This document shows positions 2,932 through 29,505 of a stretch of 46,531 nt of DNA, piece after piece (position 1 is the first letter of the stretch; every line of letters begins with the position of its first letter). The position numbers and the translations under genes are program-made. Origin of the DNA: a virus (Duplodnaviria; Caudoviricetes); IMG/VR virus record IMGVR_UViG_3300030095_002983, positions 1 through 46,531 of that record; one strand, given 5' to 3'. The notes below the pieces were generated by a model, which ran no database searches, had not been told where the DNA came from, and saw nothing but the letters and a program-made list of their open reading frames with translations.

Positions 2932-3393
2932 TTAGCAGCCCAAGATAATAAGGGCTGGGTATTGTAACGTGCAGTCTTCGAGATGTCCGTCAGGACCTCC
3001 GTTCCAAATGCGAGCTCGCTGACAGTCAGTCAAGCCCCTACCATATCTGTCCATGTATGCACGGAAGATCTTGATAGAGTACTTAAGACTGTAGCAGTCT
3101 CGGTATACACCACCGATACTGGGATCATGCTGAGTAGCATCAATCCAACAGTCTTCAGTGATTTGCATTGGACCGATCTCTCCATCCTTGCCATCTTTAA
3201 CTTTCATACCCTCTGGAGCATTGGTGGACTCAGCGGACCAGACAGCTCGTTCAAGGGCAGACAGCTCAGGTAGACGGACAAGCTGAAACGTAGGCTCGGC
3301 AGCTACTGGAGCTGGCTCACCACGATCCATGGCTACGTCAATCACAAAGATGAGAATGCATGCGGCAACACAACCTGATAAGAATTGGTACAT
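2932..3393 (-). CDS. Membrane-anchored lysozyme-fold muramidase (i-type/destabilase-like or SLT-like)
   Basis: N-terminal hydrophobic helix; candidate catalytic AES, GPMQI..CWID, YMDRY and ARIWNGGP, resembling the i-type lysozyme ARIHNGGP motif; GGAGG RBS. Confidence 0.75.
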   Translation of the reverse strand: MYQFLSGCVAACILIFVIDVAMDRGEPAPVAAEPTFQLVRLPELSALERAVWSAESTNAPEGMKVKDGKDGEIGPMQITEDCWIDATQHDPSIGGVYRDCYSLKYSIKIFRAYMDRYGRGLTDCQRARIWNGGPDGHLEDCTLQYPALIILGC

Positions 3394-3410
3394 AAGTACC
3401 TCCTTGATTA

Positions 3411-3437
3411 CTGCATTGAAGGCTGCAGTGTGCCTAT
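3411..3437 (-). promoter_or_regulatory. 27-bp early repeat, copy 1 (candidate phage promoter or leader)
   Basis: Minus strand ATAGGCACACTGCAGCCTTCAATGCAG, directly before the RBS of 2932..3393. Confidence 0.75.
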
Positions 3438-3488
3438 GGGAATGTCAAGTCACGGCCTGTCGACCGTGCTTGACAGGAGGGATGATGA

Positions 3489-3920: not shown

Positions 3921-3936
3921 GGTAAGCTCCTAGTCT

Positions 3937-3963
3937 CTGCATTGAAGGCTGCAGTGTGCCTAT
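3937..3963 (-). promoter_or_regulatory. 27-bp early repeat, copy 2
   Basis: Identical to 3411-3437; precedes the RBS of 3489..3920. Confidence 0.75.
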
Positions 3964-4017
3964 AGAAAGCTAAGCTACCCCGGCAAGGGTAGCCCAGTGT
4001 TGTGTGGAGTCCGAGAG

Positions 4018-4206: not shown

Positions 4207-4225
4207 GGTGATACCTCCTTGGTTG

Positions 4226-4252
4226 CTGCATTGGAGGCTGCAGTGTGCCTAT
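4226..4252 (-). promoter_or_regulatory. 27-bp early repeat, copy 3 (one substitution)
   Basis: ctgcattggaggctgcagtgtgcctat; precedes the RBS of 4018..4206. Confidence 0.75.
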
Positions 4253-4293
4253 GAGAAAGCATCGCTAGGCCGGTAAGCCTAGCGAGGCAGTGG

Positions 4294-4525: not shown

Positions 4526-4592
4526 AAGGGGGGGTATGGGGGTCATCATCAAAAAATTTTACCTATACCACCCCTTACAAATTCGTGACCCC
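4526..4592. other. Probable genome terminus / late-early junction
   Basis: G7 and G5 runs; inverted repeat aagggggggtat (4526-4537) / ataccacccctt (4565-4576) around A6T4; base composition and gene class change here. Confidence 0.45.
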
Positions 4593-5041
4593 TATCGACC
4601 TTTCACAGCCTGCCCAAAGTAGAACCCAACAATAGTCACAAGAATATTTCTATTCTCAGGAGTAAATAAGAATCCGTCTACTTCAGTAAATATAGTCTTC
4701 TCTTCTGGGAACATCTTCAGAAGATCCCACCATCCGTACATTGTCTCAGTATGCTCCACCACTGTAGTTATCCCGTCATTGAAGGCAATAATAAAAGGAG
4801 CAATAATAGTAGCAAACAGAATGCATATGACAATACAACGTCTAACAAGTTTGCCTCCCGCATCACTGACTCTTTCAGCAGCTTGATTCGCTGAGTCATC
4901 CGATGCCTCTTGAGCTTGAAGTACTCGCATAAATTTTTCTTGTTCATTTTTTCGTTTCTCCGCTATACTCTTAAAGATAAACCCTGTAACACTTCCTGTC
5001 AGCAGGGACAACATTTCAGGATTAAGAAAAGCTGATAGCAT
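4592..5041 (-). CDS. Holin-like membrane protein (149 aa)
   Basis: Hydrophobic segments and C-terminal IVGFYFG, as in 3-TM holin-like families; last late gene. Confidence 0.5.
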   Translation of the reverse strand: MLSAFLNPEMLSLLTGSVTGFIFKSIAEKRKNEQEKFMRVLQAQEASDDSANQAAERVSDAGGKLVRRCIVICILFATIIAPFIIAFNDGITTVVEHTETMYGWWDLLKMFPEEKTIFTEVDGFLFTPENRNILVTIVGFYFGQAVKGR

Positions 5042-5042: not shown

Positions 5043-8000
5043 TTAATTACCTTTATACTTCCCTAACGAAGTAGCCAGTCTTTGACTTGGAGATCCTGTA
5101 ACAGCTGGCACATAATTAGCCACTGTCTTTTGCGGGGGCTCAGGAGCCGCCTGAGGCTCAGCAGGGGCTGGGGTGGCCGAGAGATCAGGGACACGCTCCT
5201 CGAGCGGGGCGAGGGGTTCAGAGCCCATTAAATTGGCAAGGGGCTCTTTAGCCAAAACAGCCAAGCTATCGTATGCCAGCAACTCTGAAGGCCAGATATT
5301 TCTATCAGCAGCAAATTTAACTACACCGGGATTGTTCATGGGATCATCAGGATTCATATAATATGTAATTCCTCCACCACCGTAGCCTCCTCCGCCACCG
5401 CCGCTTCCTCCAGCTTGGGATGGAGATCTTCTTTTTTGTCGCTCTAACTCAATACGTTTCATCTGGGGGGTAGACATATACTGCACAATTGCAGCCTTAA
5501 CTACCTGCTCTTGCAAGAGAGGAAGGGCAGTAATAAGATTCATTAGAGCAAGATTAAACTTAGCATCAGCTTCTGGTCCCTTTTGGAAAGCATACTTACT
5601 TCCATCAAGCACACCTCGAGTCAACAACGATTGAATTCGTTGAAGCGGAACCGGCAAGAATGCTTGGTTTAAAATGTTCTGAGTGTAGCCTTTACCGCCA
5701 GTCAGGGCAATGTATGCTTCAGCCAGTCCAGAAGCAAGTACACCACCCATCATACCAAAGGTTGGAGTTCGACCTAATAAACGAATAATAGATTCTTTCT
5801 TTTGAAGATCCTGTAATAAAATTTCTAATCTATCCTCATCAAGCCCAGTCTTAAATGCTTCTAGTGCAACCATATATAAAATATCCATACTAATAAGATT
5901 TAAAATTCTAGTTGCATTCTGCACAGGACCATAGTATCTTGAGTCATGCCGCAGTCTTTGAGCAAAGAATAATGTTGGATAGGATCTAAAAATTTTCAAC
6001 AGAACTGCATGAGCTTGGTTACTAGTATCCATATGCAAAGGATTACCGCCCACAAACCTAGCTTCAATTTCTCTATTAACATATTCTTTAATTTGAGACA
6101 GCACTTTTAATCGTTGAGCACGAAGCTTTGGATCAGGAGTACGCAAAGCAGCTTCTTGGAGTTGAGCAATATGGGTTAATGCAGTTGCTCTACCGGGATC
6201 AAACTTATCAATTGAACCGTCAAAGATAAATTGTTCTAAGCCCGCAGCACCAACCAAATCATTTAAGTCTGCAAGGAAACTAGGTCGTAAAAGACCCGAG
6301 TTAGCCAAAGCCATAAACACTTTTACATCGTGTCTACCCAAGAAATTAAAATCAGACAAGCCACTAGGACTCTGTTTAAAAATATTTTTGACTTGTTTAT
6401 GTAAATCATTAATATCAGAATTTTCAAAATCTAATTCCATAATCTCTTTACCAGCATCAGTTTGCAAGAAATCTGCCATACGCTTCATGCCGCCACTTTG
6501 AATAAGTTGATTTAAAGTTCTAATTGCTGTGGCTTCAACGCTGTATTTAATTTTGTTGGTAATACCAGAAGATGCTCCGGTAGCTGCTTGTGCTAGCGTT
6601 TTAGGAAGCAAACCAATTGCAGCACCAACCTTATCCATAGTGCTACCAGTTATCAAACTTTCATCATCTTGATTGGTTTCTAAACCTCGGACAGTAGAAT
6701 GAGTATGAGCATATGCTAGCTCAGCCATAGTCATTTTATCTTCAAATGCTTTACCAGCATTTTGATTACCAGCTAATCTACCAAGTTTCATTACACCACC
6801 AAGACCACCGCGTGCCCCACCCTTAAGCATTTCAATTAAAAGTTTAGCGGGTCCAGCAATCATATCGCCTCGTCCAGCCATATTCAAAGCTTGCAAACTA
6901 CCTTCAACAACAAAGGTTGCTAGAGTTAAGTTACCGCCATAAGCAGCAAGAACAAGGTCACTACCAGAAGCTGCGAGACGATTCATTAATCCAAAGGATT
7001 GAGTTTTATCAACACGTTGCCGTCTACCTGCTAAAGTGTCATACTTATTTTTAATTACCTTAAGATGTTCTCTAAGCTCGGCAGTATTAGTCAATGACTT
7101 ATCTCTAGTAACTTGTCTACTTAACCTAGGATCTTTTAGAATATCTCTCGAGCCAGTTTCTAATAATGCATCTAAGATATCATCAAAACGAACGCCTTCA
7201 ATTTCATAATTATTTCCTGCAGCAAGTTTACCTAATGACTTAGTAGCAACAGCATCAAAACCTAAACCTGTAGCAACACCATCCATAAGTGACTCAGGGT
7301 CTACAACAAATGCTCGACTAAGAGCAGAGGTGCCATCTTCTTTATCAGTTTCTTTATCCATAGTTTGAGCCATAAGAGACTTAGGACTTGGTTCAAATAC
7401 CTTATCAACTGCTAAGAATCGAACACCAGTTTGTGCTTCGCGTAAAAATAATGATGCACGGAATCGTGCTGGATTATTGTGAGATGCTAATAACTCTCTA
7501 GCTTCTGCTTCTCCAGACACAACTCTAGAAAACTCCATAAAGATATTAAAGTCTCTATTGTTTCTAAACGTAGCGAAATCTTTATTATTAAAATCACCGG
7601 AGGTAATAGCTTTAATATATTTGTTTTTGTTTTCTGCTTGATTTACAAACTCAACAAGAGGAGCAAAATCTTTAGATTTAAATCCTTGTTTTTGGAAAGC
7701 TTTTTTATACATAGTTCTTAAACCATACTGAAGTAAAAGAATGTCGCTTTGCGACCAGTATCTTGTCTTGCCAATATTCTTAATAGCCTTACCTTCTAAT
7801 CTACGTTGAACTCCTTCAGGCAATGCATCAAACATTAACTGAACAACTTCACGACCCTTGGGATCAGCAGCTAGCTCAATAATTCTATCTACAAATTCTT
7901 TCTGTTTGTCTTTAGGTAAAGAGTCAACATCAAATTCATTAGAAGTAATTTGAAGTGGTGGCAACAAACCAGAAGCAAATAACGTAATAGGATCAATAAC

Positions 8001-11000
8001 ATCTCTCATTTTAGTTCGGATATTTGTTGCGATATCTTTAGATAAAGCATCTTCAACAACCTCATAGTTATTACCTTCGGCTAAGAATTGATGATTAACC
8101 CTTAAAGGTGTCGCATCATACTCTAGATTTTTATACAAAATTCCTACATCTTTTGCTAACCCAATAATGTCATTAAAGACTTGTCGCATATCTTTAGCAA
8201 CTTGATGCACAGCTTCTTCGCCTTCTCGTGGTTTCATTTCTGGATTAGAAATGTATTCCATAATTGTTGGGAACTGTTCTGGTTTAATATCAGAACGTAA
8301 CAGTTGCCCTCTGAGGAATGCCATTTGATTATCAATGTCTTGCTTAGATCTTAGTAAGTCTTTAGATCCTTCTGGATTAATCATATGCTGCGTCATTAAA
8401 ATTTGTTGGTCAATTGCAAGAGATAACTGAACAGCCAGATCATATACAGAGTCATACGTTGACTGGTTTTGTGATGGACCCAAAGTAAGACCGCTATAAG
8501 TATTATTATTCATAGCTAAGCGATCTCCGAACGATCTAAAAATAGTACCATTATTTTTTCTCATGTTTCGTAAAATAACAGCCATAGCTACATCTGGCAT
8601 TTCTTTTAAGGCTTCAGAAATATCTACAACAACAACACCATCACTTCTTGTTCTAGAGAAATCACTTAACAAAGATTGCTCCATTTGATATGCTTCTAAT
8701 CTACTTACTCTAAAGTCATCGGTTGTATTGTGATCTTCTAAGGCAGATTCTTTCTCAACAATCTTATCACCAAGAGCACTCATTTCTTTATCGGTTATAG
8801 TTTTACTATCACCAAGCTTAGCTTGTTTATCTCGTTCAGCCTTAAGTTCATTAAGCTCTTCAACTTGAGTACCAAACTCTTCATCGCTAATTGGATCAGG
8901 TGGAGCTTTCTCATCGTGGTAGAACATGTAAGAATTTTTGTTTGCCTTGGTATTAATCCTACCCTGAATAGCACCTGAGTTATCAACAACCACACCTACA
9001 GCTTTTAATGACATCTCTCTTAACTTAGCCAACTCTGCTTTGGTTTCATCAGTCTTGTGGTGCTGCTCTAACACTGCAACCATAGTTCTAATACCATTAC
9101 GAGCCAAATTAATTTGACGATAGATAGCCGCTCTAAATCTATCAATAAACTTTAATTTTTCTGCGGACTCACCATCGCGAGCTTCCAGCTGTCCTTCAGC
9201 TTTACTTAAGATATCTTCAATCTCAGTATTAGCTTCACTCATCCAATACATTGCTGCAGTTTCTGCAATAAATTCTTCTGGTTTACGCATGTAGTGTTGA
9301 TGTCTTTGAACGGCATCTGCAGAAGAACCAGCATTAATAGCTTTAGTTAATTGGTAAACCAAACGAGATACACTTCTATTCTGCATCATATTACGAATTT
9401 CATTTAACTCAGTAGAGCTATCTTGTAAGTCATAATACTTAAACGTACCAACGTGTACTAATTCGTGGACAAAAATCTTAGCTGCAGTAAGAGGATTCTT
9501 TTTGCCATCTGCAGTACTTAACTCGACCAGATACTTGTCACCGTCAGGAATAGATAAAGCACGGCTTTCTTTTGATCCAAAGTTAAACTCAATCTTATGT
9601 AACAACTCTGGATTCTTAACTGCCATACGAGATACAACAGCCAGAATAATATCCGCTGTCTCTTTAGTAATAAACCCGTCTTCAACTGCAGTTAAAACTT
9701 TATCCTTAAACAAAGACCCTTCAATAGTTTTTGTAAGATCACCTTTTGTTTCTGCCGCAGTAATAGGATAGGTAGTAGGCTGATTACGATCCATCATGCT
9801 ATCAATAAATGCATCATCTGCTCGCACAGCATCCATTAGTGCTTGTTTAATGGTAGGCAAATCTTCAGGAGTAAACTCAATACCAGAGTTTCTAAGGTAC
9901 TCTTCAAACTTAGATTCTAATACGTCTGTGAGTTCACCTTCCATTTCAAAAGGATTCTCTGCAAGATTCATTACAAATCCTCGAGCATGATCATAGTATG
10001 GATTAGCTTCGCCCGTAGTAATCATTTCCTTAACCATCTCTAACTCACGAGCTAATTCAGCTGTCTTAACAACTTCATCATCTTGCAATACTTCGTTAAG
10101 CAAAGGCATTCGTCCATCAGCATCAGGTCCAATAATACCCAAAGATAAATAAGTTTGGGCGATAAAGATTTCTAAACCAGTAGCAGATCGTAATACCTCA
10201 CCCTTAGAATCTAAGACAGGAAGTCTGTTTGGAGTTACGTTGGGATCGTAATGACTAATCATAAATCCAAGAACACGCTGTCTATTTAAAAGTTCTGTGC
10301 CAATATCAGTTCCTTTTCTAGCAACAGTATCAGCTAACTTAATTAAAAGCTTGGCTGATTTAGACATTTCAGGATTATCAAAAATTCCATACTCTTGCAT
10401 ACCTTTGATAGTTGCATTGAATGCATTGGTATACATGCCTAATCCAAAGTCTGTATCGTTTTGAGTTTCGGTATAATCAAGATATATAGCTTGATCTGTT
10501 GATCTTCTGGTAGGCACATTACGTTTTTTAGGTAACTGTCTATTTCTACGCTCTAATCTAGCCAGCATAGATCTATCTCTACCACCCACAACTACATTTA
10601 AATCAGTATCAAGTTTAGTAGTAATAGTATTAGAACGACGAACATGATACCGTTGAGAGATCATTTCCATAGCTTCAGCATGAAGCTCATCACGCAATCG
10701 CTTATTGGCAAGTCGCTCGCCACTCATTGCATCAACTTCATCTAAGCGTGTGCCTCTAGACTTAGTTCTATTAATACCGTCAATGCCAGTATGAGCAGTG
10801 TCAGTAATTAAATCTAATGTATCGCTATTCTGAATATTCATTAAAGCTTGTCGAGCCTGAGCCATAGTTAATTGAATACGACCTGTAGTTCCCCGGACTT
10901 GGCTTTCAGTATTAATCTCACCAGTACCCGGAACAATAGCTCTCTTTGATCCAGAAGCATTAGGATCAGCTAAAGTTTCTCTTAAACTGTGCTCATCACC

Positions 11001-14000
11001 TACATGTCCAACAAAGACAGTGTTAGCAAGGCTAGCAATATTTTCTTCACCAAGACTATTTTCATCTTTTATCAATGTATCCATAATAACAAAAGCATCG
11101 CCAATAGTTAAATACTTACCATAGATAGCAATCTTAGCACCGAACTCATTAACTGTAAGCGGATTGCCTTCTTTGTCTACGAGCTTATACTTATTAATAG
11201 TATTTTGTGCAATAGCTTTACCCTTAGGATGTTTTTGCAAAAACTCCATGGTAATTTGTTTTTCAAAAATAGTTGTTAAAATATGAGCAGCATCAGCACC
11301 GTGAATAACTCTAGGTTGATCTCTACTATCTTTAATAATAAAACTAGCTTTTGAAAACTCGTTTAATGGGATTCCTTCAACAGGCGCAAGAGCAGTAACT
11401 GCACCTAGGTTATTAAGTTCGTTACGGAGAGAACTTAAAACTTGCCCAATATTTTTTTGTGTGCCGTCTGTATTTCTAAGAACGTGTCTACTCATCATAC
11501 TAACATTGCCACCCGGAGCAAACTGCATGGTAGATTGTTCAGCACTTCTATTATCAACCGCTCTACGGTTAACCTCGCGAAGCTTAGCATTAATTAATCT
11601 ACGATAGTAGTGAGTAATTCTTTCGGTTTCTCTGGTTCGTTCTTCGTTCGTTAACTCTGAACTATGCAACGCAGACAACTCTTGATTCATACGTTGAGTG
11701 TACCGCTCTCTAATAGTATGAGACTGCCTGTAATAATCAAGATCTTGCCATCTTCCCTCTTTAACCAAATCCATTAAACCATGTTGATAAGCAAAATTAA
11801 TCAAAGTGTTTTCTAATTGATATGAGAAGTTTAAAATATTCTGTTCTGGGCTAGATCTTTCAAGACCTCCCATAGTATCTTGTTCTCGAGCAGGATACAT
11901 AAGATCAGCTTCATCAGTGCTAAAAGAATTATCAGTTAAGTTTTTATCAGATAAATCAGTTGACTTAATCATTCGTGCTGCGTCATCGGACAATAACTCA
12001 GCATTTTCTTGGAATTCATTAAGATCCTTAACCTTAGTTTTAATTAATCCAGCACGAAGCATTGATCTTTTAATTCGATCTGCCTTTAACTCAGGTACCC
12101 CAAGATTTCTAAAAGAGTGTTGGAATGCTTTAGGCAACGCACTGTTAATGCCATAGTTTTGTCCCATTTTTTCTAAACGTTCTTCTAACTCTTCAACAGT
12201 TTTAGACTCAGCTGTTAACTCTTGTGGATCCATGCCATCTTCTGTAATAGCTCGGTATAAACCAGCATTAATTTTAGCTTGAGCTTTTTCAATATCACTA
12301 AGATCTTCACCAGCATCTCTTCTTCGTCTTGTTTGACCTTCAACTACTTTAAGATTTTGATAATATTCTAACCACTGTTGCATAAACAAAGTGTCTCTAT
12401 TTTCTCTTTGCTTTTTGCTTAATTGATTTTCAGGAGTTAAAGAAGCAATAACTGTTTCATATAAAGTTATCTTTGTTGGATCTGTTTCAGTCTTTAAACG
12501 TTTTTCAGCTAGTTTAATAATAACATGATCTTTATTTGTAATAGTATTACCGGATCTAGACATAATATATCTAGCAAACATCTCTTTAGCTTTAGTTATA
12601 TCAACCTCATTGCGACGGTTTACAAACACACCTAAAGCAAGCAGTGGTTCATCGGCATCAATACCTTGGTTTTGTGCTCCCTTTGGACCTTGGTGAGTAC
12701 CAGCATGTTCTGTGCCATACCATCTACCAGCGTAAGAGTCTCTGCCCATTCCGCGAAATGTATTATTATTTGCATAATACTTTTCTAACGTACGACGCAT
12801 ACTAGGATCCATTAAAGATACACCCATAAACTCAGTCAACACATCTAACGCAGTAAAGTCAATAGTTCTACCAACTTGATTCATTCCTTGAACAGCTCTA
12901 AATAATCCCCTACGGCTTTCGTCTTCAACTGCTTTATCAGCTAAGTCTTGAATCTCTGCAGCCTCTTCTCGGGTAATACCCATATTAAGATCAGTTTGAA
13001 TATGTCTAATAATACTATCAAGATTTTTAACAGGATCTAACTTATCTCCAACCTTTTCTTTACGCAAGTTGCCTTGATCATCTAAGTATGGTTTGAGTTC
13101 ATCAAAGTTTTTCCAATCGGTCTTTTCTTCGGTAAGAATAATTCTAATTACTTTAGCAAGCTGAGCTTTTTCAGCATCGCTTTTAAAAGTTAACAGAGGG
13201 CCGCTGCCATCAGGATTCTTTAAGGTCAGATTATCTAAACCTTTAATTGCTCTTTCTTCAAAGAACTGAACCTGTTTATCAGTAGCAGTTTTAATCATCT
13301 TTGTAATTTTTGTTTTAATTTTTTTATACTGTGGAGTACCCGGATCATAACCCAGTCTTGTAACAATTAGATCTTCAATCAAACGATCTCTCATTTGAAT
13401 TTGGAAGGCTAAATTGTTTACACTAATATTTTTTAATGGGTCTGAAACATCTAAAGTGTTGCCTAATGCTGTTTGAATAGCTTCCATGGCTTCTTGATTA
13501 AAGCTATTTGCATCCATTCTCTTACGCATTTCAGCCAAAATATCTTCCATAACTTTACGATCACCAACAATTCGCCCCATAATAGAAGTTTCTTTAGCCT
13601 CAGCCATACCATTAAGAGCGAGTTGTCTTTCGTGCATACCAAAACCTAAAGACAGTCTAACCAATGGCAAAGCAATACGGCGGGCGTTAGCCTTACTTAC
13701 ACCCTCTTCTTCTAAGAAGTTAAAGAACTCTTGAGAAATAGTTTCTCTACCCGCTCCATACAGGTGAACCATCACAGGCTGTTTAAAGAAGTCTCTAATC
13801 TTGCCTAACTCTCCACCCTTGTTTAAATTTTCAGGTGTAAAAGTATCTGCATAAGTTTCTTTTGATAAGGTTTTCGGCAGCAATCCTACCTCTTGCATAG
13901 CTGTAATAGTGTTAAGTGCATTTTGTTTTGCAACTCCACTGCCGTTGTATGCAACATTAGCTAACTGCATTAAAACATCATGAGCCACCTTTACATAGTA

Positions 14001-17000
14001 ATCTTGGTATCTTGAGTTTTTAAATTTCTTTTGCAGTTCTTGATTGTGTTCATGATAGAAAGAATCTAAAGCACTTCCGCCTTCTGCTACAGCCCGTCTA
14101 ATATCAGCTTCCGTTGAACTCGGAGTAATTGTAGTTGGGTTTACAAAAGTAAAAGTTAATGCCATCTTGTGATGAATACCGTTAAAGTTACCATCAAAGT
14201 AAGTATTTCTACTTAAAAAGTCATCGGGGCTTAGAGTAATATTTGGATCGTTTTGCACCGTTCTTGAAAAACTATCCCAAGCCGCAAGACTTTCAATAGC
14301 TGAATCTCTAAACACTGGGTACATTCTACCCCATGCTCTATTTAAGAAATATGCAGTTGTACCAAACCTTGCCATAGCTACAGAGAAACCACCAGCTTCG
14401 CCCGCACCAGCTCCTACTTGATCCTCTTGTCCCGGCACAACAATAGCAGTTCCTTCAAAACCAACACCATGTTCCTCAAGAGTTTCTCTTAATAAATCTT
14501 CATTAATAAATCCTGCGGGTTCTTGATCCCCACTCATATGTTGGTTAAGGGAGTCGTGAATACTAGCAAGCAACACATCCTGCAATCCACTTAAAGCAAC
14601 AGCAAGTTCTGCAATAATGTCATCTCTAGTTTGAATATCTGAATTCATATTGGGGAACATAATACGAGGAATAATACGCTCACCTGCTATGTTTTGATTA
14701 TCGGGAGACACTGCTCCAGTAGCTTCGCTACCATCATCTGCCCAATCAAAAATCTGTTTAATTTCTTCTGGACTAAGATCAATATCTAAAATAAATTGTT
14801 GAATAGCTAACAGTCTAGCATCTTCCTTTAATTTTTCTAACTTACCCGGAAGCATTGGTTCGGCAATATTAATCTGAATAGGAGCACCACGAGTTTTAAC
14901 AGGGTCTGCTCTTTCTTCGGGATTAACAATTCGACCGTCAGAGTCTACTTCATCACGGAATGTTTCCATAGTTTCATGTCTAGTTCCCGGTCTAATATTA
15001 GCCAAAGTATCTACAGCACCCATACCAACTTGGTCTGCTGCTGAATAAGAAAGTTCTCCGTTGCCCCAGTCTGCTAATTTGTTAGGGACACCTTTATAAT
15101 TACTTAAGTATTTAATAATAGCTTGAGCAATATCTTGGACATCAGCATCTTGTAACTTAGAAGGATTGTACAGTCCCTCTTGAATTAATCCTTCTGCCTC
15201 TAAACTATTAATAATATTACGCATAAACCGAGGCGAGCTAGAGTATTTCATATACAATCTTTCTAAGATTGATTCTTGAATCTTTGCTTCATATTCCTCA
15301 GCGGTTTCAGTAAAGGTTAAGTTTCTATTACGATCCAATCCAACCATATACTGACCGTATAAACTACTACCTTTAGTATTAAATAATCTCTTACCCAGAG
15401 TTCGTAACGCATCTGCATCGCCCTCTGCAAGAGATAGGGTTTCTTCTAATAATAATTCAGGATCTTGTAGGTATTCGTCACGCGAAAGATTTTCTCTTTG
15501 TGCTTCTAATAATCTAGCATCTTCTTTTTTACCTCTAGCCTTATACTCTAAACGGGCACGGTGAATAAAAAGTTCTTCTAATAAAGATTGAATATCGTAG
15601 TACTGAATAGAAGCATCAGCATCGCCAATTAAACTAGCTTGGAAAAGTTTGTGCCAATTCATTTTAGCAAATGCTTTACCTACATTTACTTTACTGCCGT
15701 CTAAGCTGTTACGGACTAACAAGCCAAAACTAGAAAGCTCTGCTCCAGTTACCGTAGATCTTTTTTGTAATGAAATTAAATTGTTTAAAGAAGTTTCAAG
15801 AGTATTGATCAATCTAATTTGATTAGCACTATCTAACACAGCGGCCTTTTCATCTTCAGACATATCAATCTCTGGACGCTTAGTAGGATCCCACATTTCT
15901 TTAATGATGCCGGTAAAGGGTTTACCTGCTACAGGAACCAAATCACTATTGCCATCAATTAATGAATCAATAACAGCATCAGGATTCTTAGACTGCCTAA
16001 TATCTTCCCATCTTTCCTTACCATACATAGCATAAATTTCAGCTTTACGCATTTCTTTTTTAGTCAACGGGGCTCTAGCAATTTCAAAGAAACTATTAAT
16101 TAAATCATTTACTGCAGCTTGAAAATACTTTTGAGTAAGCTTGGTATCACCATCTACTTCAATATTAGTTAAAGCTTCAATCTTTTCTTTTTTCTGTTCG
16201 GGTGTTAACTTTTTATCAGCTTCAATAGCGGCGTGATATCTATCTAAAAGATATTTAGCCAGTGATTTTGCTGTGTATCTATCAATTCCCAGCTCTACTA
16301 AAGCAGCATGAATTTGACGTACACTAGGAACCTTATTATTCTTTGTTAACGCTCTAAGAACAGTTCGGACCTTGTGAGCTTGGTCTAACTTTTCACGACG
16401 CAACTGCAACCTAGCCCAAATATGTTCTGTAATATTTTCTGTAATATCAGGAGCAAGATCGGCTAAATCATCTCTAAGTTCTTCGGCTTCAGCTTCAAGC
16501 TTTGCTCTTTCTTCGGCAGTTTCTCTAAGAGCTTTCTCACTTAACTTGCCCATAAACTTTAAATAGTTTTGTAATTTTGTTTCAATCTCACCTAACTCTT
16601 TATCAATTGCTTGAATATCTTCTCTTGCCGCAAACAAATCACTATCAAAATCTTCTTCAGATCGAGCAAGATTTAATGCCTCTTCACGTTGAGCGTTTAA
16701 TTTTACTTGTCTTGCCTTGAGTGTTGGAAGCTCTTCTCTAATCTTTTTAGCTTTGGCAGAGTTTCCGACATCTTTGCTTTCTGCATCTCGCACAACTCTA
16801 ATTTGCTCGTCAGTATTTTCTAACAAAGCTTGACGAATCTGGGCAGCTTTACGAATACTGGGGTCTACATTGCCTTCTTCATCGGCTGCATTTTCTCCAG
16901 TCTTAGCCTTTTCATTTTCTGTATTTAACTTCTTACCTGCTTTAGATTCCTCAGATGTAGCTTCTGAGTCCATGGCTGCTGTAGCTTCTCTTGCTGCTTC

Positions 17001-17180
17001 TTCTGCTAACTCAACTGAAGGATCTTGAGTAGTATCACCAAAGGCTAACTCAAATCCGTCTGCTTTTAAACTTTGCTTAACACCCTCTTCAACTTGCTCC
17101 CTAGACAATTCAGGAAATTGTTTTTGCAGTTTTTTTACTGCTGTGTTAAATCCAGTTAAGTCACATTTACCTTTTGCCAT
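5043..17180 (-). CDS. Giant internal virion protein (about 4045 aa) with a T7/N4-family RNA polymerase domain and a zincin domain; putative virion RNA polymerase
   Basis: Start at 17180 after AAGGAGATATAC. Motif A YFDGNFNGIHH (D at 14193-14195), motif B RDFFKQPVMVHLYG (13755-13796), VIHGADAAHI (about 11280-11310), candidate motif C TIGDAF (D at 11097-11099), HELVH (9453-9467) with EEFIAE. Almost no Cys; occupies the gp16-like position. Confidence 0.8.
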   Translation of the reverse strand: MAKGKCDLTGFNTAVKKLQKQFPELSREQVEEGVKQSLKADGFELAFGDTTQDPSVELAEEAAREATAAMDSEATSEESKAGKKLNTENEKAKTGENAADEEGNVDPSIRKAAQIRQALLENTDEQIRVVRDAESKDVGNSAKAKKIREELPTLKARQVKLNAQREEALNLARSEEDFDSDLFAAREDIQAIDKELGEIETKLQNYLKFMGKLSEKALRETAEERAKLEAEAEELRDDLADLAPDITENITEHIWARLQLRREKLDQAHKVRTVLRALTKNNKVPSVRQIHAALVELGIDRYTAKSLAKYLLDRYHAAIEADKKLTPEQKKEKIEALTNIEVDGDTKLTQKYFQAAVNDLINSFFEIARAPLTKKEMRKAEIYAMYGKERWEDIRQSKNPDAVIDSLIDGNSDLVPVAGKPFTGIIKEMWDPTKRPEIDMSEDEKAAVLDSANQIRLINTLETSLNNLISLQKRSTVTGAELSSFGLLVRNSLDGSKVNVGKAFAKMNWHKLFQASLIGDADASIQYYDIQSLLEELFIHRARLEYKARGKKEDARLLEAQRENLSRDEYLQDPELLLEETLSLAEGDADALRTLGKRLFNTKGSSLYGQYMVGLDRNRNLTFTETAEEYEAKIQESILERLYMKYSSSPRFMRNIINSLEAEGLIQEGLYNPSKLQDADVQDIAQAIIKYLSNYKGVPNKLADWGNGELSYSAADQVGMGAVDTLANIRPGTRHETMETFRDEVDSDGRIVNPEERADPVKTRGAPIQINIAEPMLPGKLEKLKEDARLLAIQQFILDIDLSPEEIKQIFDWADDGSEATGAVSPDNQNIAGERIIPRIMFPNMNSDIQTRDDIIAELAVALSGLQDVLLASIHDSLNQHMSGDQEPAGFINEDLLRETLEEHGVGFEGTAIVVPGQEDQVGAGAGEAGGFSVAMARFGTTAYFLNRAWGRMYPVFRDSAIESLAAWDSFSRTVQNDPNITLSPDDFLSRNTYFDGNFNGIHHKMALTFTFVNPTTITPSSTEADIRRAVAEGGSALDSFYHEHNQELQKKFKNSRYQDYYVKVAHDVLMQLANVAYNGSGVAKQNALNTITAMQEVGLLPKTLSKETYADTFTPENLNKGGELGKIRDFFKQPVMVHLYGAGRETISQEFFNFLEEEGVSKANARRIALPLVRLSLGFGMHERQLALNGMAEAKETSIMGRIVGDRKVMEDILAEMRKRMDANSFNQEAMEAIQTALGNTLDVSDPLKNISVNNLAFQIQMRDRLIEDLIVTRLGYDPGTPQYKKIKTKITKMIKTATDKQVQFFEERAIKGLDNLTLKNPDGSGPLLTFKSDAEKAQLAKVIRIILTEEKTDWKNFDELKPYLDDQGNLRKEKVGDKLDPVKNLDSIIRHIQTDLNMGITREEAAEIQDLADKAVEDESRRGLFRAVQGMNQVGRTIDFTALDVLTEFMGVSLMDPSMRRTLEKYYANNNTFRGMGRDSYAGRWYGTEHAGTHQGPKGAQNQGIDADEPLLALGVFVNRRNEVDITKAKEMFARYIMSRSGNTITNKDHVIIKLAEKRLKTETDPTKITLYETVIASLTPENQLSKKQRENRDTLFMQQWLEYYQNLKVVEGQTRRRRDAGEDLSDIEKAQAKINAGLYRAITEDGMDPQELTAESKTVEELEERLEKMGQNYGINSALPKAFQHSFRNLGVPELKADRIKRSMLRAGLIKTKVKDLNEFQENAELLSDDAARMIKSTDLSDKNLTDNSFSTDEADLMYPAREQDTMGGLERSSPEQNILNFSYQLENTLINFAYQHGLMDLVKEGRWQDLDYYRQSHTIRERYTQRMNQELSALHSSELTNEERTRETERITHYYRRLINAKLREVNRRAVDNRSAEQSTMQFAPGGNVSMMSRHVLRNTDGTQKNIGQVLSSLRNELNNLGAVTALAPVEGIPLNEFSKASFIIKDSRDQPRVIHGADAAHILTTIFEKQITMEFLQKHPKGKAIAQNTINKYKLVDKEGNPLTVNEFGAKIAIYGKYLTIGDAFVIMDTLIKDENSLGEENIASLANTVFVGHVGDEHSLRETLADPNASGSKRAIVPGTGEINTESQVRGTTGRIQLTMAQARQALMNIQNSDTLDLITDTAHTGIDGINRTKSRGTRLDEVDAMSGERLANKRLRDELHAEAMEMISQRYHVRRSNTITTKLDTDLNVVVGGRDRSMLARLERRNRQLPKKRNVPTRRSTDQAIYLDYTETQNDTDFGLGMYTNAFNATIKGMQEYGIFDNPEMSKSAKLLIKLADTVARKGTDIGTELLNRQRVLGFMISHYDPNVTPNRLPVLDSKGEVLRSATGLEIFIAQTYLSLGIIGPDADGRMPLLNEVLQDDEVVKTAELARELEMVKEMITTGEANPYYDHARGFVMNLAENPFEMEGELTDVLESKFEEYLRNSGIEFTPEDLPTIKQALMDAVRADDAFIDSMMDRNQPTTYPITAAETKGDLTKTIEGSLFKDKVLTAVEDGFITKETADIILAVVSRMAVKNPELLHKIEFNFGSKESRALSIPDGDKYLVELSTADGKKNPLTAAKIFVHELVHVGTFKYYDLQDSSTELNEIRNMMQNRSVSRLVYQLTKAINAGSSADAVQRHQHYMRKPEEFIAETAAMYWMSEANTEIEDILSKAEGQLEARDGESAEKLKFIDRFRAAIYRQINLARNGIRTMVAVLEQHHKTDETKAELAKLREMSLKAVGVVVDNSGAIQGRINTKANKNSYMFYHDEKAPPDPISDEEFGTQVEELNELKAERDKQAKLGDSKTITDKEMSALGDKIVEKESALEDHNTTDDFRVSRLEAYQMEQSLLSDFSRTRSDGVVVVDISEALKEMPDVAMAVILRNMRKNNGTIFRSFGDRLAMNNNTYSGLTLGPSQNQSTYDSVYDLAVQLSLAIDQQILMTQHMINPEGSKDLLRSKQDIDNQMAFLRGQLLRSDIKPEQFPTIMEYISNPEMKPREGEEAVHQVAKDMRQVFNDIIGLAKDVGILYKNLEYDATPLRVNHQFLAEGNNYEVVEDALSKDIATNIRTKMRDVIDPITLFASGLLPPLQITSNEFDVDSLPKDKQKEFVDRIIELAADPKGREVVQLMFDALPEGVQRRLEGKAIKNIGKTRYWSQSDILLLQYGLRTMYKKAFQKQGFKSKDFAPLVEFVNQAENKNKYIKAITSGDFNNKDFATFRNNRDFNIFMEFSRVVSGEAEARELLASHNNPARFRASLFLREAQTGVRFLAVDKVFEPSPKSLMAQTMDKETDKEDGTSALSRAFVVDPESLMDGVATGLGFDAVATKSLGKLAAGNNYEIEGVRFDDILDALLETGSRDILKDPRLSRQVTRDKSLTNTAELREHLKVIKNKYDTLAGRRQRVDKTQSFGLMNRLAASGSDLVLAAYGGNLTLATFVVEGSLQALNMAGRGDMIAGPAKLLIEMLKGGARGGLGGVMKLGRLAGNQNAGKAFEDKMTMAELAYAHTHSTVRGLETNQDDESLITGSTMDKVGAAIGLLPKTLAQAATGASSGITNKIKYSVEATAIRTLNQLIQSGGMKRMADFLQTDAGKEIMELDFENSDINDLHKQVKNIFKQSPSGLSDFNFLGRHDVKVFMALANSGLLRPSFLADLNDLVGAAGLEQFIFDGSIDKFDPGRATALTHIAQLQEAALRTPDPKLRAQRLKVLSQIKEYVNREIEARFVGGNPLHMDTSNQAHAVLLKIFRSYPTLFFAQRLRHDSRYYGPVQNATRILNLISMDILYMVALEAFKTGLDEDRLEILLQDLQKKESIIRLLGRTPTFGMMGGVLASGLAEAYIALTGGKGYTQNILNQAFLPVPLQRIQSLLTRGVLDGSKYAFQKGPEADAKFNLALMNLITALPLLQEQVVKAAIVQYMSTPQMKRIELERQKRRSPSQAGGSGGGGGGYGGGGITYYMNPDDPMNNPGVVKFAADRNIWPSELLAYDSLAVLAKEPLANLMGSEPLAPLEERVPDLSATPAPAEPQAAPEPPQKTVANYVPAVTGSPSQRLATSLGKYKGN

Positions 17181-17190: not shown

Positions 17191-20100
17191 TTAAGAACAA
17201 TCGTTCTTTTCTTCTTCAATTAGTTTAAAGATGTTTTTTGAACTAAATGCTTGTTTCATTTTATCGCTATCAAAAGCCTCTAAAGGATTAGCAGCAGTAT
17301 TTTGAGCTGCAATGCTTTTTTCTAAACGCATTATGTCTGATTCCAATTGAATTGGAATCGCCGCTGTGACTCCTTCTATCTTGGCTTGCCGTATAAGAGC
17401 TGCACGTTCTGCTTTCATTATATCTAATTTATCCTGATCACTTAAAGAGTCAAGCTCATCCTGTGCCCTTTGCTCTTTGTAATCAAGCTCTCTTTGATAT
17501 TCAGGATCTTCAGCTTCTTCTCGTTGTTCTACCTCTAAATCTCTAAGCCCAGCCTCATGATCCATTAATTGATTATAATACTCAATAGCCATTTGTTGTA
17601 AATTAAGATCATCTTGATTCCCCATATAGGCATCAAATGCCTGTATAAAGTTATCTTCAATCACGGTTCCAGAAGCAATCATTTCTGAGGGAAGAGCAAC
17701 TCTTCTTTCTGACATCTTATCATGTAATTCGTCATCAATTAAATCATCTTGAGTTTCTGTTTCCTCTTGAGTTGTTTCTCTAGCATCTAAAAGTTCTTGA
17801 CGAGTAGTTTTAATCCAATCTTTAAATCCATCAAAATCAGGATCTGTATCTCTAAATTGTAATTCATAATTTTCTCGCAACACTTCAATTAAACTCGGAT
17901 TTAATCTGCCTGTCTCAAGCCACTCATCTACTTCGTTGTTAGCATACTCTCTATTTTTTTCTTTAGGGAATAATGGACTTTCCTGAGCCTCAAAGAATTC
18001 AAATAACGATTGTCTAAGACCATCTTCAGTTTCTTCGGGAGAATACATTTCACCTACTTCAGTAGTTTCTGTCTCTGCCGGAGCCTCAGTCTCCGCAGGA
18101 GGCGTAGGAGGCGTAGGAGGGGTAGGGGGTGTCGGTGGAGCCGGTGGAGGCGTAGGCGGTGCCTCAGGCGGCGTAGGAGGATCCTTAGGTTTAGTCTTGG
18201 ATGGCCTAATACTTTGACCAGCCTTCAGCATCTTTAAATATTTTTTCTGAATCAGCTCTCTTATTTGCTTTCTATTTAATCGAGGTTTAAGTGTAACCCC
18301 AACTCTTTCGGCTTCCGCTATTAACTCTGCTCTACTTTTCATTTTAGCTAATCTAGCTCTAGCCTGAGCCATTTCGCTTCTAAGTTCGACCTCAATATTA
18401 AATACTTCTGCTAAACCTTTGATCATAGCGTCAACTCTTGGATTGTCTCTAGCAGCTGTTAATGCTTGTTCCAGCGTAAATAACAAAGTATCTCCCTCTG
18501 GAGACAATCTATCTAAGACCTGCAAGCTATTAATACCACGGGCATCAAAATAATTAACAGCCAATTCGCCTACAACCATATCGGCAAATGTATTTTCAAT
18601 CATATCAGCAATTACAGATCTAGCAGTAAACCTTCTAGGTCTACCCATAGTGCCACGGTCTTTAAGTTCTGTTTCTCTTTCTAAGTCTGCAATAAGCTGT
18701 AGCTCTGCATTGGTTAGAGGAACACCCTGTGCTTTTCTTAAAGCTTTTAATGTATTAACCAATTGACCATCACTTAGATCTCTTAACCCAAGTCTAGCGC
18801 GAATTGCCTCAATTACCTTAGGTTTAAATTTTTCAGCAGCATTGGCAATATCTACATCAGTTACTGCTCGTAGGGCATTTAACATACCGCTTACTCGTTC
18901 AAATGCCTGAACAGTTCTAGCATCAATACCCACTCGAACAAACTTAGCCTCATGAGTAGGTTTGTTACTATCTAATGCTCCGGGTCTTCTTAAAATTAAT
19001 CGTTGAGGATTTGGTTGACCTCGAAATTGGATTACAACTTCAATAATATCTGCATTCTTTAAATCTTCTGCTGTTAACTGCAGCCCCTTAAGAACTAACG
19101 AACTGCCCTCTTCATCCTTAAGGATAATATCACCATTATGATTTTCTAATTCATTAATAATAAAATCACCAACAGTTTTAAATCCAGCATTGTGATCTAG
19201 TCTTTGTTGTAACTGTTTAAACAAAGCGGTAGTAGTTAATCTCAAAGCGTCATCAATAGCAAACCTAACATCTTTAGTAATGCCCAGTTTTTCTCTGTGA
19301 TTTTTAATTGCTTGTAACGTAACATCAAAACCTACGCCACGCCTTAGTTCAGCAATTTCTGACTCGTAGTTTCTTGTTACCTTGCCGTCGTCATCCACTT
19401 CATTTTTCTTAGGAACAAAGTATTCATTGCCCTCCTTATCAGTTTTTTTATCAAACAGTTCAGGATTTTTTTCAGCAATTAATTGATTTAACTCACGAGC
19501 TAACGGTCCATCTTCGCCGTCAATTCGTAACAAGATATTAGGATCTCGTAATACTTCTTCACGATAATAAGAGATATCTTTTTTCTCTGCGTCAGGATCA
19601 GCAGCTTCAGCCTGTGCCTTTGCTTGCTCCGCTAACATTGTCACTGACATTTCAAAGTATGCGGCACTCTTCATGGCAGCTGCTTCATATCCACTGCGAG
19701 CTTCGGTATCTAACTTATTCCAAACTGTAGCCATTAGCATTTGATTAAACGCTTCTTGAGTTACAGGCTGTTGTATTTGTTCTTCTAATTTTTTAATATT
19801 CTCTTGCTTCTGAGCCTTAACCTCTTCTGTATCAGTTTCATTAATTACAAAATCATCTTTGCCTTTAATTCCTTTTTGAGCCGGATCATTAATAAGTTCT
19901 TGTTTTGCTAAGTTTTCCCTAGCCTCTCTAATTAATTTAACAAGTTTAAGCTCTCCGGGTTTACCATCTGCTTTACGTTCTCGGCCTAGGATTCTACCCC
20001 GCTTGTCATACCGCATCATTTCTGCAATAGCTACAAGGAAAGGATGCTCACCCGTCATATCTTCTGGTCGAATGCCTTCTCTAAACGCAACCTTGTCTGC

Positions 20101-21750
20101 TTCTGTTGACAAACCTAAAGCATCTAGTTCTGACATAACTTCTAACGCATCCATCTCATTATCTAAGAAGTGTGCATCGTCAATATTGTACATTGATTTA
20201 GCTCTAGCAAATCCTGCACCAATACTTCTAACCCAACCCATGCTATCAGCATCATCATCAAACATAGACATGTTATTTTTTAAGAAGTTAGTTGTTTGGG
20301 CTCCAACATATTGCAAACCAAAGTTAAAACTTCTAAGTGCAGGATTAATGAGGAATGCTCTCATAACAGAACCAGCAATACCTTCATCAATAAAAGCATC
20401 TAAAACACTTTGCTCACGGCCCTTTTGGACTCTATTCATTGTGTATGCGTTGTAAGCACCAGCAATACCTTCTTCAACAAAACCAGCTGGCAATTCAGCC
20501 GCAGTATAACCTAATAAACCGGAACCATACTTCCTACCAATAGCGTACTTAGATCCATCAATAATAACTTCATCTGACTGTACAGCTAAGAATTTACCAA
20601 ATTGAGTTTTGCGAATAGCGTGGCCTACACTGAGTCCCCAGTTTTGAGGCAATGCTTGATTTACAAACATTTGTGTCTTGCGTACACCTCTAGCAAGTTG
20701 AATAGCACGCCTTGCAGCCTGCCGCCCCTTCTCGCCTTTTCTTGCCATTCTAATAGCAAACGAAACTAATGCTGCTTTACCAACTCCGGGTACAAGTTGT
20801 AAACCGGCAGTAATTAATGCTTCACCTGCAAAATCTGGATCATTAAGAACAGAGTCCCTAACAAAATCTTTAGTAACCATAGCCCATTCTTGATATGCCG
20901 GAGCCATATCTTTCCATGTAGCAATAGTATTACCTGCTCCAATCATAGCAGTTTGTCTGTTAACATGCCACCAGAACTCATTAGCGTTTTCTGTTTTCTT
21001 TAAAATTTCTATATCAACACCACTGCTTTGCATAAGCTGAGCAAAGTCTGGTTTAATTAAAGCAATGTTTTGTAGATAACTTTCTGCATTAAAGTTAGCA
21101 TCTTTATACTGCAGAGCTAATAAGTCAGGAGATTTCATAATACCAAAAGCATCAAATGAATCATCAAAGTTGAGGGGGTTCATATTCCAACCGCTGCCAT
21201 AAACCGTGCTACTCTTTATTGCTTCTTCAAACTCATCATCAAACTGAGTTAATCCACGATTCTCAAAGTAATCTCTAAACCCACCATACATTAAATTTTT
21301 ATTGATTTCAATATTGCTTGCATTTCTTGCAGTAATACCACGGGTTAATTCAGCGTTACCTAAGAACCAACTGGCAGCTGAAGAATCAGCCCAACCAATA
21401 GTTCTTTTATCTTGAATTTTTAATTTGCCCGTAGAATCGGGAGTCACAATCTTATAAAGAAAATCGTTATAATCCTGTTTAGTTTCTGGATCTGATACTC
21501 CAAGAAGTTGAGCTCTTGTAACATTTCTTTTCATATTACCAAAACGTTCTTCTCCCTTACGGGCAATACTCATGGCTTTGGCACGTTGATAGTTTATGGT
21601 ATTAGCTTGATAACCAGTTACGCTGTCTATTGGAGAACTTGCAGGACTAATAGGCTCTTCTGCTGAACTTCTAATATCTTCTGCCATTGCTGCATTAGGA
21701 TCTTCTACTCTTCTGGTATCTTTTGCTAATTCGTTTTCAACTAATCCCAT
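17191..21750 (-). CDS. Large internal virion/ejection protein (1519 aa)
   Basis: AAGGAG RBS; Gly/Ala-rich amphipathic segment, Pro-rich linker, acidic tail; lies in the ejection-protein cluster. Confidence 0.7.
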   Translation of the reverse strand: MGLVENELAKDTRRVEDPNAAMAEDIRSSAEEPISPASSPIDSVTGYQANTINYQRAKAMSIARKGEERFGNMKRNVTRAQLLGVSDPETKQDYNDFLYKIVTPDSTGKLKIQDKRTIGWADSSAASWFLGNAELTRGITARNASNIEINKNLMYGGFRDYFENRGLTQFDDEFEEAIKSSTVYGSGWNMNPLNFDDSFDAFGIMKSPDLLALQYKDANFNAESYLQNIALIKPDFAQLMQSSGVDIEILKKTENANEFWWHVNRQTAMIGAGNTIATWKDMAPAYQEWAMVTKDFVRDSVLNDPDFAGEALITAGLQLVPGVGKAALVSFAIRMARKGEKGRQAARRAIQLARGVRKTQMFVNQALPQNWGLSVGHAIRKTQFGKFLAVQSDEVIIDGSKYAIGRKYGSGLLGYTAAELPAGFVEEGIAGAYNAYTMNRVQKGREQSVLDAFIDEGIAGSVMRAFLINPALRSFNFGLQYVGAQTTNFLKNNMSMFDDDADSMGWVRSIGAGFARAKSMYNIDDAHFLDNEMDALEVMSELDALGLSTEADKVAFREGIRPEDMTGEHPFLVAIAEMMRYDKRGRILGRERKADGKPGELKLVKLIREARENLAKQELINDPAQKGIKGKDDFVINETDTEEVKAQKQENIKKLEEQIQQPVTQEAFNQMLMATVWNKLDTEARSGYEAAAMKSAAYFEMSVTMLAEQAKAQAEAADPDAEKKDISYYREEVLRDPNILLRIDGEDGPLARELNQLIAEKNPELFDKKTDKEGNEYFVPKKNEVDDDGKVTRNYESEIAELRRGVGFDVTLQAIKNHREKLGITKDVRFAIDDALRLTTTALFKQLQQRLDHNAGFKTVGDFIINELENHNGDIILKDEEGSSLVLKGLQLTAEDLKNADIIEVVIQFRGQPNPQRLILRRPGALDSNKPTHEAKFVRVGIDARTVQAFERVSGMLNALRAVTDVDIANAAEKFKPKVIEAIRARLGLRDLSDGQLVNTLKALRKAQGVPLTNAELQLIADLERETELKDRGTMGRPRRFTARSVIADMIENTFADMVVGELAVNYFDARGINSLQVLDRLSPEGDTLLFTLEQALTAARDNPRVDAMIKGLAEVFNIEVELRSEMAQARARLAKMKSRAELIAEAERVGVTLKPRLNRKQIRELIQKKYLKMLKAGQSIRPSKTKPKDPPTPPEAPPTPPPAPPTPPTPPTPPTPPAETEAPAETETTEVGEMYSPEETEDGLRQSLFEFFEAQESPLFPKEKNREYANNEVDEWLETGRLNPSLIEVLRENYELQFRDTDPDFDGFKDWIKTTRQELLDARETTQEETETQDDLIDDELHDKMSERRVALPSEMIASGTVIEDNFIQAFDAYMGNQDDLNLQQMAIEYYNQLMDHEAGLRDLEVEQREEAEDPEYQRELDYKEQRAQDELDSLSDQDKLDIMKAERAALIRQAKIEGVTAAIPIQLESDIMRLEKSIAAQNTAANPLEAFDSDKMKQAFSSKNIFKLIEEEKNDCS
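18097..18180. repeat. Degenerate 9-bp tandem repeat encoding a (PPT)n linker
   Basis: aggaggcgt-like units; PPTPPEAPPTPPPAPPTPPTPPTPPTPP. Confidence 0.8.
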
Positions 21751-29341: not shown

Positions 29342-29505
29342 CAGATTTCTCCTTCAATCGTCCTCAATCTATTTTCATGGTCCTCTACAATATGGTGCAA
29401 GTTGGTAAGGTTAGCATTTATTTTACCCAATTCTTTTTGGATCTGCCATAGAAAATTAATAATACCGCACCCAATAATTAATTCAATAAATACTAACTCG
29501 TTCAT
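29341..29505 (-). CDS. Small membrane plus coiled-coil protein (54 aa), possible lysis accessory
   Basis: Hand-translated MNELVFIELIIGCGIINFLWQIQKELGKINANL...EDHENRLRTIEGEI; fills the TerS-TerL gap where T7 has Rz. Confidence 0.6.
   Translation of the reverse strand: MNELVFIELIIGCGIINFLWQIQKELGKINANLTNLHHIVEDHENRLRTIEGEI

Follow-up and report, generated by a model that had tools for sequence, protein, structure and literature searches.

A candidate virion RNA polymerase, probably with reordered catalytic motifs, in the giant ejection-slot protein of a T7-tailed phage

In the parts of the literature drawn on here, which are cited by PMC number, the virion RNA polymerases (vRNAPs) of N4-like phages are always fused to a zincin and are restricted to N4-like phages and prophages (PMC5512222). 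The 2026 structural paper among these sources treats the giant vRNAP as the third ejection protein and calls it unique to Schitoviridae (PMC13434306). The T7-type tail needs ejection proteins as well (PMC4819975), and in T7 the third of them, gp16, has 1318 amino acids (aa) and a lytic domain without an RNA polymerase (RNAP), T7 relying on the RNAP of its host (PMC13434306). Here we describe a giant protein of 4045 aa encoded on the minus strand of the IMG/VR virus record IMGVR_UViG_3300030095_002983, the whole of which (46.5 kb) is the window analysed, and argue that it is probably a packaged and injected ejection protein in the gp16 slot of an uncultured marine T7-tailed phage, with an RNAP module that would transcribe the early region. 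In part, this idea has precedents: the N4 vRNAP, gp50, is embedded in a homologue of IVP-D (gp16), in a phage that has no tubular tail B (PMC4819975), and a 3274-5566-aa protein whose function is called unclear occurs in all members of the AG-10.1 group, four times with PF00940 (PMC12361551). Our literature searches, with most subscription papers outside their scope, returned no virion RNAP in a T7-tailed phage and no permuted single-subunit RNAP.

The AG-10.1 group is the nearest described set of phages. A relative of the window phage with a TerL 91% identical (G003) is listed as AG-10.1 in row 998 of supplement file 2 of PMC12361551, and through this relative the window phage presumably belongs to AG-10.1 of the marine Autographiviridae as well, with which it shares T7-type core genes, a giant protein and an optional extra RNAP downstream. 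Seven other relatives were not found in that supplement (one looked for in any searchable file, six in file 2). The section of PMC12361551 on the group reports an extra RNAP of ~650 aa downstream of the giant protein in 23 members; it gives the giant protein no virion or ejection-protein label and does not discuss motif order, zincin or promoters, although the paper's treatment may be fuller elsewhere.

An earlier note on this DNA, made from the letters alone, had placed an open reading frame (ORF) of about 4045 aa in a gp16-like slot and had read in it a virion RNAP with its motifs in the expected order, followed by a zincin. The ORF is real and lies on the minus strand, running from an ATG at 17180 to a stop at 5043-5045 behind the ribosome-binding site (RBS) AAGGAG, and the plus-strand translation of the same interval contains many stops.

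5043-17180, minus strand: 4045-aa giant protein in the gp16 slot, with an N-terminal helical region, an RNAP module (about aa 700-2050), a zincin and a conserved C-terminal domain

Conservation was counted in an alignment of 15 homologue rows with 15-55% identity to the window protein, and blocks of a 21-sequence alignment of T7-family RNAPs (L133, with an internal stop, was left out) were scanned along the 15-row profile of ~1725 positions, with 300 column shuffles for each block. All six motifs quoted in the note are present in the sequence, and motif A, motif B and PRVIHGADAAHI proved to be the top sites for the corresponding T7-family blocks. A further T7 motif, DxY (D1060), which the note had left out of its list, was found between motifs A and B.

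14169-14201, minus strand: motif A, aa 994-1004, with Asp996 (Asp in 14/15 rows; 0/300 shuffles)
13995-14003, minus strand: DYY, aa 1060-1062, equivalent of T7 DIY (D in 15/15 rows, Y in 14/15; 1/300 shuffles)
13755-13796, minus strand: motif B in the fingers, aa 1129-1142, with R1129, K1133 and Y1141 (each 15/15 rows; 0/300 shuffles)
11280-11315, minus strand: PRVIHGADAAHI, aa 1956-1967, equivalent of T7 PNFVHSQDGSHL (0/300 shuffles; D1963 in 12/14 rows, H1960 in 7/13)

The blocks landed at aa 990 (motif A), 1056 (DxY), 1126 (motif B), 1952 (PNFVH) and 869 (motif C), and the conservation of motifs A and B among homologues, whose absence the note had named as refuting, held. The catalytic roles of these motifs in T7 RNAP are established. 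In profile searches against PHROGs, the whole giant protein matched phrog_414 at aa 1056-1221 (E 1.3e-5), and the segment aa 820-1200 matched both phrog_414 (E 5e-6) and the virion-RNAP family phrog_2206 (E 1e-5), with phrog_414 also matching 7 of 12 homologous segments at E <= 0.021. The same database gave no RNAP match for 12 segments around DxxxGR and 6 around PNFVH. Sequence and profile searches of solved structures found nothing, tblastn of the RNAP core against 50,697 phage records gave no match, and no shorter homologues of aa 1880-2260 were found among 7998 candidates.

AlphaFold2 models were made of window aa 860-2059 (model 1; mean pLDDT 52, pTM 0.28) and of the more compact module (~1070 aa) of relative G009 (model 2; mean pLDDT 50, pTM 0.34), and with both models T7 RNAP (gp1) and human mitochondrial RNAP (mtRNAP) came first and second among 48,161 chains. 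The confidently modelled fingers of model 1 (aa 995-1184) matched T7 RNAP 3e2e with Z 8.7 (rmsd 2.7, 96 aligned) and mtRNAP likewise with Z 8.7; model 2 reached Z 10.5 and 9.8 for the two polymerases (rmsd 2.5, 98 residues), the next unrelated row standing at 5.9. The AlphaFold check proposed in the earlier note gave fingers, which match T7 RNAP best, and no palm, and Foldseek of model 1 against the Protein Data Bank (PDB) returned 0 matches at E <= 0.001. Some results count against the proposed reading: PF00940 of Pfam gives no match to the protein, the Gly of motif B, present in the window as G1142, is found in only 6/15 rows, the Z of 8.7 for model 1 is level with unrelated helices at 8.4, and a palm is formed in neither model, so that the match is limited to ~100 fingers residues. 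In the ESM Atlas, homologue P0007 gave leads under 0.9 only, with RNA_pol clusters among them, at low recognition. We regard the homology of the fingers and motif A to the T7/N4 single-subunit RNAP superfamily as secure, and infer a complete active site in the module.

The order of the catalytic motifs is a separate matter. In T7 RNAP it is DxxGR (421), A (536), B (627), PNFVH (780) and C (807), and the note had seen the same succession here by taking NRAWGRMYP for DxxGR and YLTIGDAF for motif C. With those residues the canonical order was not found. Asp is present at D2028 of YLTIGDAF in 2/13 rows, and for motif C the block scan puts this site at ranks 9 to 29, whereas G951 and R952 of NRAWGRMYP, which does sit at exactly 14316-14342, are kept in 3/15 rows each; because neither site is conserved, the claim of a canonical order is unsupported. 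Other Asp residues tried and rejected as motif C were D2127, D2164, D2202 and D2235 (4-5/14 rows each) and D2150 (6/11 rows).

14550-14561, minus strand: IHDS, aa 874-877, best motif C candidate, upstream of motif A, with the putative catalytic Asp876 (D in 15/15 rows, H875 in 14/15; 0/300 shuffles)
12717-12767, minus strand: strand and DxxxGR (D1481, G1485, R1486), lying downstream of motif B and the leading candidate for the DWRGR block of T7 (D in 14/15 rows, R in 15/15)
14316-14342, minus strand: NRAWGRMYP, aa 947-955, not conserved
11079-11114, minus strand: YLTIGDAF, aa 2023-2030, D2028 not conserved, followed by D2034, the rival motif C Asp at the canonical position

The motif C block lands on IHDS with a score of 15.1, against 4.1 at the best site near YLTIGDAF, and the DWRGR block, given a spacer one residue longer, lands at aa 1472 with a score of 15.3 (0/300 shuffles), against 7.0 at NRAWGRMYP. 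The best-scoring sites hence follow one another as C, A, DxY, B, DxxxGR and PNFVH. A circular permutation would not produce this arrangement, since the DxxGR piece is displaced relative to A and B as well. Judged from these alignments, it is somewhat more probable that the motif order of the module is scrambled than that it is not. Some of the evidence pulls the other way. The sites were spotted by eye before any statistical testing, and the longer DxxGR spacer was picked after the alignment had been seen, the ungapped DWRGR block being not significant (171/300 shuffles); the NPQG, palm-insertion helix and W..P blocks of T7 have no significant site in the block scan; and in single-sequence scans IHDS comes first for motif C in only 7/15 rows. 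Such scans are weak even for motif A, and they place the 1472 site first for DxxxGR in 8/15 rows. T7 motif C is preceded by a strand, whereas the residues before IHD form a low-confidence helix in both AlphaFold models, which likewise speaks against the reordered assignment.

The last of these points also favours an alternative in which the packaged RNAP is active and near-canonical in order, its second catalytic Asp being D2034 after the PNFVH-like helix and IHDS belonging to another subdomain, for example an HD-type metal site. On this alternative the Asp at column 2034/2035, present after a hydrophobic stretch in 12/14 rows (Glu in 1), would lie on the canonical side of that helix, the placing of IHD at a helix end by AlphaFold would be no embarrassment, and RAWGRMYP, which the window and two close homologues (3/15 rows) favour as DxxxGR to the detriment of the reordered assignment, would keep its old role. 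We nevertheless consider it improbable, since there is no His or small residue around D2034, homologue L012 is without D2034 yet keeps all other motifs, no row picks the site in the motif C scan, and D876 is invariant with the better block score, while a conserved DxxxGR still remains after motif B.

We return to the reading of the giant protein as an injected ejection protein and to its gene context. The T7-type structural setting that the note had claimed is confirmed by profile matches, and the gene ends a tightly packed same-strand run with an RBS before each gene, comprising scaffold, major capsid, gp11, nozzle gp12, two probable fibre genes, TerL and the ORFs of 208, 1748, 1519 and 4045 aa, together with a membrane protein of 149 aa.

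27647-41503, minus strand: TerL, nozzle gp12, gp11, major capsid and scaffold genes of T7 type (PF22530, PF25675, PF17212, PF05396; phrog_38, 457, 446, 267, 1052)
27020-27646, minus strand: 208-aa ORF, presumed gp14 slot from position, size and homologues in relatives, with no profile match
21763-27009, minus strand: 1748-aa ORF in the gp15 slot, a probable ejection protein by its position
17191-21750, minus strand: 1519-aa ORF, which in close relatives is the N-terminal portion of one fused giant protein (5050-5331 aa)
5421-7343, minus strand: conserved C-terminal domain, by sequence comparison also in giant proteins without an RNAP module

As in T7 genes 14-16, the giant protein follows gp14- and gp15-sized genes, and the third and largest slot of the ejection cluster is filled by 1519 plus 4045 aa after 208 and 1748 aa, an order repeated in relatives. 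The split between the 1519- and 4045-aa ORFs was considered as an assembly error and ruled out: the junction has stop, RBS and ATG, contigs of runs X1 and X5 (one study) bridge it unchanged and without differences, and the giant gene of relative G017 is broken near the same place. Apart from the identical L006 there are 7 close loci (2 of them repeats), and every one has the two ORFs fused.

That the giant protein is packaged and injected rests on gene position and on an N4-like layout of RNAP and zincin, and it could instead be made during infection and stay unpackaged. No sequence link to T7 gp16, T7 gp15 or the C-terminal domain of N4 was found, which counts against packaging, as does the lack of detectable homology to any other named virion protein; the gene borders the early region in this group, and the section of PMC12361551 on AG-10.1 locates the protein outside the structural genes, in a variable stretch that lies upstream of the RNAP genes. 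We hold this alternative to be very unlikely. The gene closes the late run described above, whose GC content is ~37% compared with ~50% in the first 4 kb (the early region), and it follows gp14- and gp15-sized genes, of which the gp15-slot protein of relative G011 (L149:3434-7606) ends in a lysozyme domain (phrog_7 E 2.8e-33); the 1748-aa protein of the window gives no such match. Moreover, the ejection proteins that a T7-type tail needs, in the account of PMC4819975, have no other candidates in the window, which covers part of the genome.

Downstream of the RNAP module lies the zincin motif reported in the earlier note, which is conserved as HExxH in 4/4 close homologues checked and in 10/12 module-bearing giant ORFs.

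9261-9467, minus strand: zincin-like HELVH (aa 2572-2576) with EEFIAE (aa 2635-2640) downstream

The claim that the largest T7-type ejection-slot protein carries an RNAP is supported as to a module of the T7/N4 superfamily and a zincin, and unsupported as to the motifs' canonical order and two of their five assignments. The layout resembles that of N4 gp50 and the DEV vRNAP in having a central single-subunit RNAP followed by an HExxH zincin and a large C-terminal domain (PMC13434306, PMC5512222, in the parts drawn on), and N4 gp50 has HELVH too, at 2228. As in N4-like vRNAPs, a zincin is joined to the RNAP module on its downstream side and the protein has at least ~3500 aa, and, as with N4 gp52-50, the protein is third in a three-gene run in a phage with a second phage RNAP in its early region. 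The differences are as clear. The window phage has no N4-type head and tail genes but a T7-type nozzle, gp11, capsid, scaffold and TerL; similarity of gp50 to the giant protein is confined to the fingers (A9 profile E 7e-4); the motifs of gp50 are canonical (TRVGR 1417, A 1556, B 1663, KIFDG 1945), whereas those of the window are T7-worded (IHDS, PxxxHxxD) and apparently reordered; and the window-type module spans ~1100-1300 aa in a polypeptide that reaches 5.0-5.7 thousand aa in relatives. By analogy, the giant protein would work like N4 gp50 without being a Schitoviridae vRNAP, judged by the head and tail genes.

Just past the end of the operon there are three copies of a repeat unit, each a GC-rich hairpin before a conserved 17-mer, an RBS and a start codon.

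4212-4287, minus strand: repeat unit 1, GC-rich hairpin, conserved 17-mer and RBS before an early ORF
3923-3997, minus strand: repeat unit 2, hairpin, 17-mer and RBS
3397-3475, minus strand: repeat unit 3, hairpin, 17-mer and RBS
1-753, minus strand: 5' part of the gene for a second T7-family RNAP, encoded on its own (~595 aa in relatives) and truncated at the edge of the window (phrog_414 E 7.4e-9)

By chance, 0.09 copies of the 17-mer would be expected, and the stems of the three hairpins differ in sequence yet all pair. The units may be early promoters, or RNase III or other RNA processing sites, or terminators. Copies homologous to them occur in G002 and G003, and different repeated hairpin units occur in the module-bearing G006 (3 copies) and G008 (3-4 copies); a crude repeat scan of the module-bearing G005 and G009 came up empty, and G010-G013 and G015 showed nothing comparable. 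A fourth hairpin resembling unit 2, without the 17-mer, lies at 2895-2927. Directly behind unit 3, the early ORF at 2932-3393 (minus strand) matches destabilase (lysozyme-like) weakly, with an E of 0.003 that does not reach the cut-off.

The product of 1-753 shares 93% identity with its counterparts in G002 and G003, but the giant proteins of these two share only 40-46% with that of the window. The second RNAP was found in 4/6 near-complete records with the module, also in G002, G003 and G006, and in 0/6 without it; G015 lacks it, and G017, a fragment, has no RNAP gene. We take this co-occurrence as a lead only, because several of the six are close kin. Both G002 and G003 are rated 100% complete, with TerL 91-93% identical to the window. 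In G003 the giant gene is followed by a 595-aa RNAP (PF00940 E 3.6e-27) and an 815-aa T7-type RNAP (E 7e-81), beyond which come primase-helicase, DNA polymerase, exonuclease and a T7-type portal (PF12236), and G002 has ORFs matching the G003 RNAP genes in size and position. Since G003 has two further RNAP genes, the module is not needed as an ordinary intracellular RNAP.

The giant protein is 40-47% identical to five homologues across nearly its whole length, and protein and contig searches returned full-length homologues at 31-51% identity and fragments at ~25-30%. With TerL and the 815-aa RNAP as bait, 26 further records were searched, and the RNAP-core profile matched 6/26, always in giant ORFs, which is an independent detection; G015 was added through the C-terminal domain and local alignment, and the profile matches of G004-G006, G008, G009, G015 and G017 arise by construction and are not independent. 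The 149-aa neighbour, used as bait, gave 2/30 relevant loci. Among 12 records rated >=90% complete the module is present in 6 and not detectable in the other 6, so it is dispensable in the group, which counts against the proposed reading. The four module-negative giant proteins that were fetched gave no RNAP signal in an unfiltered search, and the C-terminal domain, present in all giant proteins of the group examined, is common to these same four (E 1e-12 to 2.5e-4). Because module-negative proteins keep this domain, the giant protein appears to be one orthologous slot with exchangeable cargo. A parallel is offered by the polyvalent proteins of Iyer et al. 2017 (PMC5512222, in part), large injected proteins with zincin MPTase and exchangeable cargo, in that some orthologues carry the RNAP cargo while others lack it and still keep the C-terminal domain. 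In G017 (L142, G017:1-12742, minus strand) the giant protein is spread over three ORFs (1134, 2768 and >=353 aa), and its RNAP module stands apart from the zincin part.

Such patchiness also bears on whether the module is a rearranged RNAP relic that has stopped making RNA and serves ejection by binding DNA or nucleotides, perhaps as a ratchet or anchor, host RNAP carrying out early transcription as in T7. Large insertions, scrambled blocks and models without a palm would suit a relic, as would the loss of the motif B Gly in 9/15 rows, the absence of the module from half of the near-complete relatives, and the 5694-aa giant protein of G015 (L141:1235-18316), a phage also without the second RNAP, whose degenerate module has lost the equivalents of D996, H875, D1481 and D1963 and kept motif B; the G015 copy is evidence against an active polymerase. 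The residues kept in 14-15/15 rows at ~15% identity, however, are catalytic and NTP-binding positions, and the second RNAP and early hairpin units tend to accompany the module, though the genomes are not independent. We consider a relic unlikely.

Elsewhere in the window, TerL (27647-29341) lies between fibre-like genes and the ejection cluster and so precedes the ejection genes, unlike its genome-end position in T7, an order shared by relatives. The nozzle protein (33821-38032) has 1403 aa compared with 794 in T7 and 2050 in G004, and the major capsid protein (38851-40443) has 530 aa, both with large insertions or extensions. The 149-aa protein (4592-5041, minus strand) has one strong hydrophobic segment, is 90-99% identical in close relatives, has homologues in many unrelated viral contigs and is possibly a holin. 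In an unrelated phage of SU10 type by its capsid, portal and adaptor (L026:7705-12720, minus strand, in G001; also L013-L016), the last of three large genes encodes a 1672-aa protein with an RNase T-type exonuclease (PF00929, E 8e-13) and an N4-vRNAP-like RNAP (PF00940, E 2e-10) in canonical motif order, and a separate 812-aa T7-type RNAP is encoded on the opposite strand. This 1672-aa protein is a second candidate virion RNAP from a phage that is not N4-like.

Taken at its full length, the mechanism we propose would run as follows. The RNAP-bearing ejection protein would be packaged in the head and enter the cell with the DNA, its active site formed by Asp996 of motif A and most likely Asp876 of IHDS, together with Lys1133 and Tyr1141, on a palm whose pieces follow one another as C, A, B, DxxGR, PNFVH. 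The injected RNAP would initiate at the repeated hairpin units lying directly past the end of the operon and make the first transcripts, including that of the ~595-aa second RNAP gene, and the N4-like cascade would end with the ordinary 815-aa T7-type RNAP found in relatives. The wider picture, of a marine Autographiviridae lineage with a rearranged RNAP as exchangeable gp16-slot cargo, a non-collinear palm, hairpin promoters and a three-polymerase cascade, we put forward tentatively, as somewhat less likely than not to hold in all its parts.

If true, the finding would mean that a T7-tailed phage has a virion RNAP and that the T7/mitochondrial RNAP family has a permuted member, and it would give a function to the unexplained giant proteins of AG-10.1; candidate promoters adjoin the giant gene. 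A genuine reordering of the motifs would amount to a natural rearrangement of the T7-type polymerase palm, bearing on the evolution of the fold and on the points at which such enzymes can be split or re-linked. If a T7-tailed lineage does use the N4 strategy, the podovirus ejection protein would be a general carrier onto which an RNAP can be loaded or from which it can be lost, given that module-bearing and module-free orthologues coexist.

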